IMG/VR virus record: IMGVR_UViG_3300006752_006525
Coordinates: 33,320-97,319 of that record
Source: a virus
Direction: 5' to 3' (one strand)
Length of the DNA: 64,000 nucleotides
Numbering within the stretch: position 1 is the stretch's first letter; each line of letters starts with the position of its first letter. The notes under the pieces are model-generated. The model did no database searches. It was not told the origin of the DNA and saw only the letters and a program-made list of their open reading frames with translations. Of the stretch, positions 15,421 through 44,559 are shown one piece after another. The translations under genes were made by a program, and so were the position numbers.

Positions 15421-15481
15421 GGTTGACAAATATGCAAAATTTGCTATACTATATACATAGTTAGGAAATAGGAAACAGGAG
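15421..15481 (+). promoter_or_regulatory. early promoter cassette GGTTGACA-N16-TATACT plus leader ATAGTTAGGAAATAGGA
   Basis: Near-identical copies at 16761 and 41685; related copies at 42943 and 44504. Confidence 0.8.
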
Positions 15482-15487
15482 TTAAGT

Positions 15488-15799
15488 ATGTATATTTTAG
15501 AAAACAAAACAAACGGTTCGGTCTTTGGTGCAAAGAGTTATTACATCAAGTCTGAATTTTCAACAGCGGCGGCGGCTAAAGCGGCTTTAACCAGATACAC
15601 TAAGAAGTATGCTGATCATGACTACATCAACTTTGATCCAGAGAACTTCAAGGTAACTGCTTGGGCTGATTATGATGAGCCTCAAGTTACTAGAACTGCA
15701 AGGTTCCCAGGTACTGGTGAAGAGAGAACTTACACAATTGGTATCAATAGTGTTGGTACTTGTGTAGACCCAGCAACAGAAACTTACTGGAGTATGTAA
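15488..15799 (+). CDS. early hypothetical protein
   Basis: RBS and early promoter; C-terminal CVDPATETYWSM. Confidence 0.7.
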   Translation: MYILENKTNGSVFGAKSYYIKSEFSTAAAAKAALTRYTKKYADHDYINFDPENFKVTAWADYDEPQVTRTARFPGTGEERTYTIGINSVGTCVDPATETYWSM

Positions 15800-16760: not shown

Positions 16761-16814
16761 GGTTGACAATACACAGAAATTTGCTATACTATATGCATAG
16801 TTAGGAAATAGGAG
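16761..16814 (+). promoter_or_regulatory. early promoter cassette (TTGACA-N16-TATACT, leader ATAGTTAGGAAATAGGAG)
   Basis: Near-duplicate of the 15421 cassette. Confidence 0.8.
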
Positions 16815-16820
16815 AGCAGA

Positions 16821-41216: not shown

Positions 41217-41244
41217 TTGACAATACCTAAAACTCGTGTATAAT
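41217..41244 (+). promoter_or_regulatory. sigma70-like promoter TTGACA-N16-TATAAT
   Basis: Consensus hexamers; monocistronic unit closed by the terminator at 41595. Confidence 0.78.
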
Positions 41245-41307: not shown

Positions 41308-41577
41308 ATGACTACAACTACTACTTTAACTAAAGAGCAAAAAGTATTAAACGCTCTACAAGAAGGAAGAACTCTTTCATCTGCACAGATGAGAGCATTC
41401 TTTGGAACTGGTAACCCACAAGCAGTGATCCAATCACTAAGATTCAAAGGATTTCCAATCTATTTGAATGTTGTGACTGACACTAAAGGAAGATCAAGAA
41501 ACGTATATCGTCTTGGTACTCCTTCAAGAGCAGTTATTGCCGCTGGATACAAAGCGATCGCAAACGGCACTGTCTAA
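41308..41577 (+). CDS. winged-HTH DNA-binding protein
   Basis: KVLNALQEG..LS..QM…FG..NP.A.I..LR..GFPIY…YRLG. Confidence 0.7.
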   Translation: MTTTTTLTKEQKVLNALQEGRTLSSAQMRAFFGTGNPQAVIQSLRFKGFPIYLNVVTDTKGRSRNVYRLGTPSRAVIAAGYKAIANGTV

Positions 41578-41594
41578 ATCCAGTTCTGGAACAG

Positions 41595-41623
41595 AAAGAG
41601 AGGGCATTCCGCCCTCTTTTTTT
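41595..41623 (+). terminator. rho-independent terminator
   Basis: GAGGGC-ATTCC-GCCCTC followed by a T7 run. Confidence 0.85.
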
Positions 41624-41684
41624 GAACTTTTTTACACTAATTTAATTTCTTTAATCAAATCAAGCACTTACAAAACATCAAAAC

Positions 41685-41743
41685 GGTTGACAATATACAA
41701 AGATTTGCTATACTATATTCATAGTTAGGAAATTAAATAGGAG
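41685..41743 (+). promoter_or_regulatory. early promoter cassette (TTGACA-N16-TATACT, leader ATAGTTAGGAAAT…AGGAG)
   Basis: Third copy of the 15421/16761 cassette. Confidence 0.8.
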
Positions 41744-41749
41744 TAAGAT

Positions 41750-42850
41750 ATGGACCTACAAGTAAAACCCAGTTCAGTTACTAATATTGTAAACAGAGCG
41801 TTTGAAGCAAAAAGACCTGTCTTTTTGTGGGGAGCACCTGGTATTGGTAAATCAGAACTTATTGAGCAAATTACTGAGTCTCTCGGTAATTCCACAATGA
41901 TAGACATGCGTTTGGCACTTATGGAGCCAACTGATTTGCGTGGCTATCCTTTCCGTAACCCAGAAACAAATACCATGGAGTGGGCTCCTCCAGCAGACTT
42001 GCCTACGCAAGAATTTGCGGCACAATACGATAATGTTGTATTGTTCTTAGACGAGCTCAACTCTGCACCACCAAGTGTACAGGCGGCGGCTTACCAACTT
42101 ATCCTAAACGGCCGAGTTGGTCAATATGAGTTGCCAAGTAACACTCTCATTATTGCGGCAGGTAACCGTGAGACAGACAGAGGTGTTACATACCGTATGC
42201 CAGCACCGTTGGCTAACAGGTTCCGTCATATTAATATGGCAGTTGACTTTGGTGATTGGCAGAAGTGGGCACTTAACAATAGCATCCACCAGGATGTAGT
42301 TGGTTACCTTTCATATGCCAAGCAGGATCTTTTTGACTTTGATCCTAAAACAAGTTCACAGGCATTTGCTACTCCTCGTTCATGGAGTTATGTAAGTGAG
42401 ATGTTGAACGTTGCTTCATTCGACGAGGCATCTATCTCAGAGCAAAAGGCTGAGATTGCAGGTGCAGTTGGTGAGGGAATGGCTGGTAAGTTTATTGAGC
42501 ACAGACGTATCTCAGGTAAACTACCCCACCCATCCGACATTATGGATGGTAAAGTCAAGAAACTTAATGAGGATATTTCCAGAGAAATCTCTGCCAAGTA
42601 TTCCTTAGTTGTCGGTCTCACCTACGAGATTGCAGAATTGCACAAAGAAAACAAAGGTGGTAAGGAGTTCCAGACTGCCTTTAACAATGCTGTAAGGTTT
42701 GCATACGATAACTTTGAGCCTGAAATGGTTATCTTATTGTTCAAGACAATCATGACAGACTACAAGATTAAGTTCAATATCCGAACAGATCTAGACAAGG
42801 ATGTGTACAAAGTGTTCTCTGAGAGATACACCAAGTACATTGTAGATTAA
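41750..42850 (+). CDS. MoxR-like AAA+ ATPase
   Basis: WGAPGIGKS, EPTDLRG.P, LFLDELN, AAGNR, PLANRF, TPRSW. Confidence 0.88.
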   Translation: MDLQVKPSSVTNIVNRAFEAKRPVFLWGAPGIGKSELIEQITESLGNSTMIDMRLALMEPTDLRGYPFRNPETNTMEWAPPADLPTQEFAAQYDNVVLFLDELNSAPPSVQAAAYQLILNGRVGQYELPSNTLIIAAGNRETDRGVTYRMPAPLANRFRHINMAVDFGDWQKWALNNSIHQDVVGYLSYAKQDLFDFDPKTSSQAFATPRSWSYVSEMLNVASFDEASISEQKAEIAGAVGEGMAGKFIEHRRISGKLPHPSDIMDGKVKKLNEDISREISAKYSLVVGLTYEIAELHKENKGGKEFQTAFNNAVRFAYDNFEPEMVILLFKTIMTDYKIKFNIRTDLDKDVYKVFSERYTKYIVD

Positions 42851-42856
42851 TCAGTT

Positions 42857-42927
42857 TTAGCACTGGGCACCTACTACTCCTCCTACCTAACTGTCTCAGT
42901 GCTAATCGACCCCTCTTCGGAGGGGTC
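42857..42927 (+). ncRNA. candidate structured RNA: long stem with 22-nt G-free anti-SD loop, then a C(UUCG)G hairpin
   Basis: UUAGCACUGGGCA/UGUCUCAGUGCUAA stem around CCUACUACUCCUCCUACCUAAC, then GACCCCUC-UUCG-GAGGGGUC. Confidence 0.55.
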
Positions 42928-42942
42928 ACCCTTTAATAAATA

Positions 42943-42990
42943 GGTTGACAAACAGGCATTATTTGCTATAATAGTTGTATTAGTTAGGAG
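42943..42990 (+). promoter_or_regulatory. early promoter TTGACA-N16-TATAAT with TAGTTAGGAG leader
   Basis: Consensus hexamers, extended -10 TG, shared leader motif. Confidence 0.8.
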
Positions 42991-42996
42991 AACTTC

Positions 42997-44289
42997 ATGA
43001 GCAAAGATATTAAAAAAGCGGCATCCGAAGTAGCAGATGTAATCATACCAGAAACTACAAAGACTTCTGCACAAATCGAAGACACACTGATCGGCTCTCG
43101 TATTAAAATGCTGATTAACCAGCCCTTTTTTGGTAACCTAGCAACTAGGTTACACTTTGTTGACGCCACTGCTTGGTGTCCCACATTGGCTACTGACGGT
43201 AGAAACTTTTATTACAACCGTAACTTTGTTGCCGCACTTAGCGACGAAGAAGTAGTGTTTGGTTTTGGTCATGAAGTTCTCCATTGTGTATATGATCACA
43301 TGAACAAGGACATGATTGGTAATAGAGATCGTAGACTTTGTAACATTGCACAGGACTATGTTATTAACGCAGACCTTATTGATGCTGGTGTTGGTGAACA
43401 GATCAAGTTAGTTCAAATATGTCATGATTGGAAGTATCGTGGAATGCACTGGATGGAAGTGTATGACGAACTGTTCCGTCAGGCTGAAGAAGAAGGTCGT
43501 GTTATTGAGGTTGGTACACTTGATATGCACATGGACGGCATGGACCAAAATGGTGGCGAAGGCAATGATGCACCAGGTGAAGGTAACAACGATGGTTCAG
43601 AAGGTCCTATTCAATACAGCGATGACGAGATGGAGACTATCAAGAACGAAATGCAAAATGCTGTGGTGAATGCCGCTAAGGTTGCAGGTGCAGGTAACTT
43701 GCCTGCAGGTGTTAAGCGAATGCTGAAAGACTTGTTGAATCCTCAGTTAGACTGGCGTGAACTACTTGCAATGCAAATCCAAAGTGTTATCAAAAGTGAT
43801 TACACATTTGGTGTCCCTTCACGTAAGGGTATGGACGCAGGCATTTGGTTACCTGGTATGGATCGTGAAACAACAATTGATGTTGCTATTGCATTAGACA
43901 TGTCAGGTTCTATTATGGACGAGATGGCACGTGACTTCCTTTCAGAAGTAAAAGGTGTTATGGATCAGTACACAGACTTCAAGATACACTTGTTCTGCTT
44001 TGACACTGAAGTACACAATCCGCAGAGTTTCACACAAAACACTATGGAAGAGTTCATGGAGTATGAACTTGCTGGTGGTGGCGGTACTGAGTTTGATTGC
44101 TGTTTCAACTACTTGAAAGACGAAGGCATTGTGCCTAAGAAGTTTATTATGTTCACAGATGGTTACCCTTGGAGTAGTTGGGGCGACGAGTCCTACTGTG
44201 ACACACTGTTTGTTGTACATGGTGGCGGCTATGGCGAGCCTCCTGTAGCACCGTTTGGTATCACTGTTCCATACACAAGAGAGGATTAA
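42997..44289 (+). CDS. metallopeptidase-like + VWA domain protein (MoxR partner)
   Basis: TLATDG…GHEVLH (HExxH) and C-terminal VWA with DMSGS, GGGGT.F, MFTDG. Confidence 0.85.
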   Translation: MSKDIKKAASEVADVIIPETTKTSAQIEDTLIGSRIKMLINQPFFGNLATRLHFVDATAWCPTLATDGRNFYYNRNFVAALSDEEVVFGFGHEVLHCVYDHMNKDMIGNRDRRLCNIAQDYVINADLIDAGVGEQIKLVQICHDWKYRGMHWMEVYDELFRQAEEEGRVIEVGTLDMHMDGMDQNGGEGNDAPGEGNNDGSEGPIQYSDDEMETIKNEMQNAVVNAAKVAGAGNLPAGVKRMLKDLLNPQLDWRELLAMQIQSVIKSDYTFGVPSRKGMDAGIWLPGMDRETTIDVAIALDMSGSIMDEMARDFLSEVKGVMDQYTDFKIHLFCFDTEVHNPQSFTQNTMEEFMEYELAGGGGTEFDCCFNYLKDEGIVPKKFIMFTDGYPWSSWGDESYCDTLFVVHGGGYGEPPVAPFGITVPYTRED

Positions 44290-44507: not shown

Positions 44508-44552
44508 CAAATCTACAATTTTTGCTATAATATGTGTATAGTTAGTTAGGAG
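44504..44552 (+). promoter_or_regulatory. early promoter TTGACA-N16-TATAAT with TAGTTAGGAG leader
   Basis: Consensus hexamers and shared leader motif. Confidence 0.8.
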
Positions 44553-44559
44553 TAGATAT

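Follow-up and report, generated by a model that had tools for sequence, protein, structure and literature searches.

The C/U-rich, G-poor hairpin loops of RNAIII, a stand-alone, multi-target RNA with UCCC motifs, pair with Shine-Dalgarno (SD) sequences. In the RNA phage MS2, the Min Jou interaction masks a ribosome binding site (RBS) with a distant segment, and this pairing is melted by translating and terminating ribosomes, such that the upstream cistron unmasks the downstream gene. RsaE of Firmicutes, a stand-alone small RNA (sRNA) with multiple targets and UCCC motifs, pairs with SD sequences through G-poor, C-rich loops (PMC6158497). The icaR mRNA of Staphylococcus aureus carries in its 3' untranslated region (3'UTR) a pyrimidine-rich anti-SD sequence (UCCCCUG) that is complementary to its own SD region (PMC3868564). 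In the hbs mRNA of Bacillus subtilis, pairing of the 5'UTR with the 3'UTR shields an RNase Y site and thereby links the stability of the mRNA to its translation (PMC5737220). The OppZ and CarZ RNAs of Vibrio cholerae are processed and bind Hfq; they target an internal cistron in trans, and termination there depends on Rho (PMC7398697). Very few bacterial mRNAs, including icaR and hbs, are known to pair their own 5' and 3'UTRs, and each was discovered through experiments on one species. In the present case, this logic is backed by natural covariation in the genomes of dozens of uncultured phages, and in one of the solutions the stop codon itself would be put into a duplex with the SD region.

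The element described here lies at the 3' end of a phage gene for a MoxR-like ATPase and shares features with each of these systems. As in icaR, an anti-SD in the 3'UTR faces the SD of the same mRNA, and blocked initiation would be expected. However, the two have no homology in sequence or structure (the MoxR loop has an ACUCC core and CCUAC boxes), which makes the likeness one of analogy only. In addition, the MoxR anti-SD is located in a hairpin loop just past the stop codon, beside a terminator-like hairpin, in a 3'UTR of about 80 nt of a phage gene, and the case is built on covariation in many lineages rather than on experiment. Like OppZ and CarZ, the element would be a regulatory RNA at the 3' end of an mRNA, would end at the terminator of this mRNA (canonical in most relatives, with a weak T tract in the window) and would pair with the RBS region of its source transcript for gene-specific negative feedback; unlike them, it has variants overlapping the stop codon, which argue for action in cis. 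As in hbs, the two ends of one bacterial mRNA would pair over a long range, but the paired segment is the SD region. In contrast to RNAIII and RsaE, the MoxR loop is tied to one gene, has an invariant core (ACUCC) with CCUAC boxes, and tracks the flanks of the SD. As in MS2, an RBS would be masked from a distance, but the masking segment is the gene's own stop-codon/3'UTR region. Full-text literature searches retrieved no phage element of this kind. While 5'/3'UTR pairing itself was already known, its proposed use by a phage, the two architectures (hairpin loop and stop codon) and the wide reach of the natural covariation are new here.

Organization of the MoxR transcription unit

The window, that is, the whole stretch of 64,000 nt that was analysed, belongs to a 97-kb IMG/VR fragment of a jumbo phage, estimated to be 27% complete. 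The nearest cultured relatives are PA5oct-like and Rak2-like phages, with likeness at the protein level only. The MoxR gene forms its own transcription unit, which is followed by the separate promoter and leader of a DUF2201_N/VWA-like (vWA) gene (Table 1; all transcription starts and transcript ends are predicted). Directly upstream of the MoxR unit is a gene for a small winged-helix protein (HTH_39, window 41308-41577) with a promoter at 41217, and the end of this gene precedes the strong terminator.

Table 1. Coordinates of the features of the MoxR unit and of the leaders predicted to pair with the loop (window numbering)
Feature	Position	Strand	Description
103-aa gene leader	15459..15487	+	Top predicted partner of the loop, -20.9 kcal/mol
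221-aa gene leader	16799..16820	+	Second predicted partner, -17.7 kcal/mol
Strong terminator upstream of the MoxR unit	41592-41624		
MoxR promoter	41687..41714	+	TTGACA-16-TATACT with TG extension; one of five paralogous promoter-leader cassettes
5' box AGTTAGG, predicted 5' end of the MoxR mRNA	41723..41729	+	Complement of CCTAACT at the 3' end of the loop
MoxR SD region AGGAGTA	41739..41745	+	ATG 4 nt further on; complement of loop TACTCCT
MoxR-like AAA+ ATPase gene	41750..42850	+	366 aa; Pfam AAA_5 and AAA_3
Hairpin 1	42857..42905	+	13-bp stem with one bulge; displays the anti-leader loop
22-nt G-free loop CCTACTACTCCTCCTACCTAAC	42870..42891	+	Anti-SD TACTCCT at 42875-42881; anti-5'-box CCTAACT at 42886-42892
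Hairpin 2	42908..42927	+	GC-rich 8-bp stem, TTCG loop; terminator-like, weak T tract
Separate promoter and leader AGTTAGGAG of the DUF2201_N/VWA-like gene	42945..42996	+	Perfect TTGACA-16-TATAAT promoter at 42945-42972, 3' of hairpin 2; leader at 42982; ATG at 42997
ATP-dependent DNA ligase leader	44544..44559	+	Fourth predicted partner, -16.2 kcal/mol

Two hairpins follow the MoxR stop codon. The 13-bp bulged stem, the 22-nt G-free loop and the 8-bp UUCG hairpin given in a preliminary description of this locus are all present in the sequence and in the predicted fold, which has an energy of -32.7 kcal/mol (z = -3.76) that was equalled by one of 200 dinucleotide shuffles. G-free runs of at least 22 nt are common and are no evidence taken alone. 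A terminator scan of the window gave no intrinsic-terminator call for hairpin 2 because its T tract is weak; its counterparts carry a canonical T run in most relatives. Searches of Rfam 15 found no family overlapping the element, either in the window at E-values up to 10 or in six relatives at E-values up to 1. An antisense open reading frame in the loop (AGGAGGAG, then GTG) was rejected, having only seven codons and no conservation.

Conservation and covariation of the two hairpins

Protein-guided scans of metagenomes and IMG/VR provided 160 loci, in each of which MoxR was located and the sequence after its stop codon was read; the ORFs of the relatives are simple calls made for this analysis. 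About 30 metagenomic contigs of related phages carry the element directly 3' of the MoxR stop codon. The same architecture was observed in every relative with a MoxR identity of at least ~62% and in four more distant ones (L100, L106, L114 and L032), and consists of a hairpin with a 13-40-nt G-poor loop, a GC-rich hairpin immediately after it and, in most cases, a T run. In a loose hairpin scan of 890 kb, 30 of the 66 matches lay no more than 40 nt past a MoxR stop codon. The element is kept behind MoxR also where the vWA gene is not next to it (L015, L016, L019, L027, L091, L093 and L098), and is therefore part of the MoxR 3'UTR. Thus, its earlier placement between the MoxR and vWA genes is correct as a position, but not as a feature of the spacer between the two, since in the relatives it tracks the 3' end of MoxR.

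The conservation within the element is distributed unevenly. The loop has an invariant CTCC (ACTCC in nearly all relatives) together with CCTAC boxes, and the stems are rewritten throughout the relatives. In an anchored count of 26 distinct stems, 97% of the pairs are canonical, with all four Watson-Crick types at each position; when the 3' arms were shuffled among the 26 stems, 46% were paired. MAFFT did not align the element in structural register, and its alignments were set aside for the counting of pairs in favour of a covariance model built from five consistent type-A seeds; this model misses the short-loop type C (as in record G001). In the covariance-model alignment, 94.2% of the cells are paired versus 61.8% after shuffling (none of 500 shuffles was as good), and all 21 pairs of the two helices show changes on both sides, with 37-48% in slid controls. 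Such an alignment leans towards its model, and the independent anchored count agrees with it.

The covariance model found a single hit in the window (42857-42935). Across 571 kb of related loci, all 20 hits with E-values below 0.01 lie behind MoxR. Among 14 weaker hits (E-values of 0.02-0.8), four or five are off-site, namely three on the minus strand over the same region, L098:5446 and L029:321. No hits were obtained in 495 kb of distant loci, in the PA5oct region or in record G001. These results, with the loop sequence conserved and the stems covarying in related phages, show that the element is a real conserved structured RNA with two covarying stems.

A collection of cultured phages contained no close relative; the top MoxR match, from PA5oct (47% identity), has only a plain terminator after the gene. 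The type-B loop word had no match in a set of one genome per prokaryote species. A search of viral contigs with an 18-nt loop word gave four matches, two of which are chance occurrences in coding regions and were discarded. In most type-B relatives (L012, L014, L015, L017, L028, L035 and L093), GGGAG(A/G)GG is present right after the MoxR stop codon, within the first 12 nt. By its complementarity to CUCCC of the loop, it could serve as an internal decoy under the terminating ribosome and possibly form a translation-sensitive switch.

Covariation of the loop with the MoxR leader

The leaders extracted from each locus showed that the reverse complement of the loop recurs between the SD and the AUG of MoxR and changes with the loop in numerous uncultured phages of marine origin. 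Exact matches of 7-12 nt between loop and leader are present in 24 distinct loci. In the leader sense, the shared words are GGAGTGATGTA in L018/L094 (11-12 nt, with loop TACATCACTCC), AGGAGAGAGA in L032, GGAGTAACAT in L035/L091 and GTAGGAGTAA in L027/L100 (10 nt each), AAGGTAGGT in L095, the SD of which lacks GGAG, and AGGTAGGAG in L020 (9 nt each), TAGGAGGA in L010 (8 nt), and AGGAGTA plus AGTTAGG in the window (7 + 7 nt). Cognate pairs exceed permuted loop-leader pairs in both exact match length and duplex energy (p < 1e-4, 24 distinct pairs, with related loci treated as independent). At 19 of the 23 loci, the loop performs better than its own composition-preserving shuffles at p < 0.05. On the MoxR protein tree, at least six switches of the paired word can be counted. 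The signal rests on several sequence switches that are clearly independent, though the permutation tests ignore kinship.

The predicted pairing favours the gene's own leader in most loci. When the leaders of ~6 kb around each of 22 loci were ranked, that of MoxR was the top-pairing one in 14 versus 2.7 expected; another leader pairs clearly better in five. In record G001 (122 kb), which holds L094, the MoxR leader is the top partner among 124 (-17.8 versus -12.7 for the next; mean -5.3, s.d. 2.5, z = -5), and the 9-mer GGAGTGATG occurs once forward, in the MoxR RBS, once in reverse, in the loop, and nowhere else. Over all genes of G000 and G001, cognate matches between leader and 3'UTR are not enriched, and MoxR is the sole genuine outlier in G001; the complementarity is thus a property of MoxR among the genes of the two records, and a general 5'/3' complementarity of phage genes was looked for and not found. 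G001 also contains, at C1:65722-66021 (L176), two near-identical terminator-like palindromes (AAAAAGCCAGTTACC...GTAACTGGCTTTTT) around a short spurious ORF.

The net interaction energies, after subtraction of the opening costs, are -5 to -16 kcal/mol. A bipartite duplex that comprises the 5' end of the mRNA and the SD is predicted for many loci. In type C, an 11-bp duplex would have to form within a 14-nt loop and would be sterically strained unless the stem breathes.

Stop-codon and loop variants in distant MoxR clades

The feature is not universal: in most of the 78 loci with a more divergent MoxR (48-55% identity), the gene is followed by a plain terminator only. Several distant clades, however, show complementarity between the leader and the 3' region with unrelated sequences. 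In clade X, the anti-SD starts with the stop codon itself and is outside any hairpin. The leader GCGAGGTCTTA faces the anti-SD TAAGACCTCGC in L145/L074; a compensatory substitution distinguishes L108 (ACGAGGTCTTA versus TAAGACCTCGT) from L145, and in L138/L101 a one-base deletion on both sides is combined with a TAA-to-TAG change (AGGTCTA versus TAGACCT). L105 and L110 show the same pattern. Together with the word switches on the tree, the L108 substitution pair and the L138 indel pair indicate compensatory changes that keep the loop or anti-SD complementary to the leader.

Matches overlapping the stop codon were also found in L052 (12 nt), L047 (9 nt) and L057 (8 nt), and an 8-nt match in L070 starts 7 nt past the stop codon. 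In clade Y (L054, L081 and L087), a large 3'UTR loop matches the 5' end of the leader over 9-12 nt. Exact matches of at least 10 nt are present in 14 of the 102 distinct loci versus 0.8 expected from non-cognate pairs. The proposed closure would take three forms across the clades: a loop-displayed anti-leader, a stop-overlapping anti-SD, and a loop against the 5' box. As judged from these sequences, the same complementarity is shown to have been re-invented independently in distant MoxR clades, with at least three unrelated sequence solutions for one gene. Seven loci (L145, L074, L108, L110, L138, L101 and L112) have a distinct conserved hairpin with the loop CTTCTCAG after the stop-codon anti-SD, and this loop is complementary to a CTGAGAA box in the leaders of some members.

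Probable pairing between the two ends of the MoxR mRNA

The covariation between the SD region and the 3' region, the display of the loop on a covarying stem, the re-invention in distant clades and the gene specificity together point to end-to-end pairing of the MoxR mRNA. We consider it probable, though well short of certain, that the 3'UTR loop pairs with the leader of its own mRNA and gates the initiation of translation, in the manner of the icaR 5'/3'UTR pairing. A cis element looping back to its own leader was one of the options offered at the outset, and it is the one favoured by the covariation with the MoxR SD region.

The duplex would extend from the SD region to a few nucleotides before the AUG and, in the phage of the window, would also include the AGUUAGG box at the 5' end. 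Since the spacer between SD and AUG is always covered, the most likely effect is that the 30S subunit loses access to its binding site as soon as the 3' end is made; the sequence by itself would be compatible with repression, stabilisation or re-initiation. The completed mRNA would then close on itself and initiation would stop, while ribosomes loaded during transcription, before the 3' end exists, would keep translating. The duplex could be opened again for a short time by ribosomes that terminate 3-22 nt before the hairpin or on the anti-SD itself. In this way, the element would cap or time the output of MoxR per transcript, and the duplex may be a substrate of RNase III, as in icaR.

The main rival of cis pairing is an autoregulatory sRNA derived from the 3'UTR. 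Hairpin 1 and the terminator hairpin (about 75 nt) would accumulate as a stable 3' fragment and pair in trans with the RBS of new MoxR mRNAs, and so exert negative feedback. An accessible loop that carries the seed, with a GC-rich hairpin and a T run behind it, is the typical layout of an sRNA at an mRNA 3' end; the covariation of the loop with the MoxR SD fits equally well, and OppZ and CarZ of Vibrio cholerae provide a precedent (PMC7398697). However, the anti-SD of the distant clades overlaps the stop codon outside any hairpin, which suits an intact mRNA better. Action in cis on the intact mRNA is favoured because such an anti-SD is the end of a coding region rather than an sRNA-like hairpin, and we regard the sRNA as rather unlikely.

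Predicted pairing with the early leaders of the window

The predicted pairing of the loop is less exclusive in the phage of the window. AGTTAGG is located at 15459, 16799, 41723, 42982 and 44544, each time just 3' of one of five paralogous promoters. The matches that had been pointed out previously, namely CCUAACU as the exact complement of AGUUAGG in five early leaders, UACUCCU with AGGAGUA of the MoxR RBS (TACTCCT/AGGAGTA) and the loop with the ligase RBS (CTACTCCT/AGGAGTAG), were all recovered. The AGTTAGG word is not enriched over the window (13 found versus 7.9 expected) and is not evidence alone. Duplex energies of the loop were calculated with the leader (positions -30 to +3) of each of the 135 genes called in the 97-kb record. 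AGTTAGG leaders rank 1, 2, 4 and 6 among the 135 (background mean -7.8, s.d. 3.5), with MoxR in sixth place (-14.9 kcal/mol) behind three other AGTTAGG leaders; the vWA leader ranks 17th. The match to MoxR is modest in this phage (7 + 7 bp, with about -7 kcal/mol left once the opening costs are subtracted), and it beats 99.6% of the loop's own composition-preserving shuffles. By both the ranks and the shuffles, the complementarity of the loop to leaders exceeds the background.

Since the loop is predicted to pair with the other AGTTAGG leaders at least as well as with that of MoxR, it may have a multi-target role in the phage of the window. The loop could then act as an anti-leader against early genes as a class, pairing with every AGUUAGG...AGGAG leader and shutting the genes off as it accumulates. 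This would agree with the ranks given above, with type-B loops in which several modules (CCUACCU, GUUACUCC) match the SD flavours of neighbouring early genes, and with a second leader nearly equal to that of MoxR in several loci. However, the loop of G001 matches the MoxR leader only, the unique loop and SD sequences of L018, L032 and L095 track MoxR alone, and the element is always at the 3' end of MoxR. Moreover, the shared leaders come from paralogous promoter cassettes, and cross-matches among them are therefore expected as a by-product. We regard such a class-wide role as improbable. The proposal that early genes at large, or host mRNAs, are shut off finds no support in the G001 loop or in the distant anti-SDs, which lie over the MoxR stop codon with no sRNA-like loop; shut-off of the early regulon is possible for the window's phage only, and the comparative data give no support to it as the conserved function.

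The window has two classes of sigma-70-like promoters. Class 1 (13923, 17497, 20321, 28264, 36255 and 41217) has TGTATAAT and unrelated leaders. In class 2 (15427, 16767, 41687, 42945 and 44504), the promoter reads GGTTGACAA...TTTGCTATAMT and the AGTTAGG box comes after it, where transcription is predicted to start; this cassette is conserved among related metagenomic phages. The leader of the 103-aa gene (15488) lies in a purine-rich loop of 27 nt on top of a 9-bp stem (ATATACATA/TATGTATAT; window 15451-15495). This arrangement would allow a kissing (loop-loop) contact with the G-free loop.

Stability, ribosome re-use and DNA-level alternatives

Pairing of the two ends could also act on the stability of the mRNA, by hiding the 5' terminus from 5'-end-dependent RNases, or on the re-use of ribosomes, by bringing the terminating ribosome near the start. 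The bipartite duplexes, which are predicted to take in the very 5' end in many loci, and the stop codon of clade X, which would lie within the duplex beside the SD, are in line with these functions, and the hbs 5'/3'-UTR interaction is a precedent (PMC5737220). However, the covarying part in every clade is the segment from SD to AUG, where occlusion is expected to block initiation, and the match to the 5' box is not universal, being absent in L018, L021 and L100. A function of this kind is quite improbable. The complementarity is also a 7-12 bp inverted repeat around one gene and might act at the DNA level (in recombination, inversion or as a protein-binding site) with an incidental RNA hairpin, but this is very improbable because one of the copies invariably coincides with the SD region while its counterpart is presented by a loop on a covarying stem, and gene order and orientation are constant across the relatives; the repeats are, moreover, short with a shifting register, and the locus has no recombinase and no conserved antisense ORF or promoter.

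Returning to end-to-end pairing that gates initiation, a wider reading of it is tentative and should be taken as conjecture. A closed-loop mRNA may have evolved several times in one phage gene, with the stop-codon/3'UTR region pairing with its own RBS and so coupling termination to initiation. Such a self-closing mRNA would be served only by the train of ribosomes loaded during transcription, and the longer loop of the window's phage may silence other mRNAs with the same cassette.

If the pairing is true, the phage MoxR ATPase is singled out as a protein with its dose under unusually strong control. With about 80 nt and a 30-nt leader, the element is a small and portable test of whether end-to-end closure meters translation, and it equally suits the question of how termination and initiation communicate on one mRNA. 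In addition, the regulatory repertoire of jumbo phages gains an RNA motif that had not been described.

Metatranscriptome contigs from salt marsh

Metatranscriptome assemblies from salt marsh contain short contigs that are identical or nearly identical to MoxR. One of them spans 42745-42895 and runs from the end of the coding region into hairpin 1. These contigs are weak evidence that the MoxR-hairpin region is transcribed in nature, as they carry no ends, strand or level and carry-over of DNA is possible. In two of the metatranscriptome runs, a contig with a depth of about 33 matches MoxR on both sides of window 42399-42583, where 165 other letters replace 183 nt. This contig probably represents an abundant related phage with a divergent middle part of MoxR.
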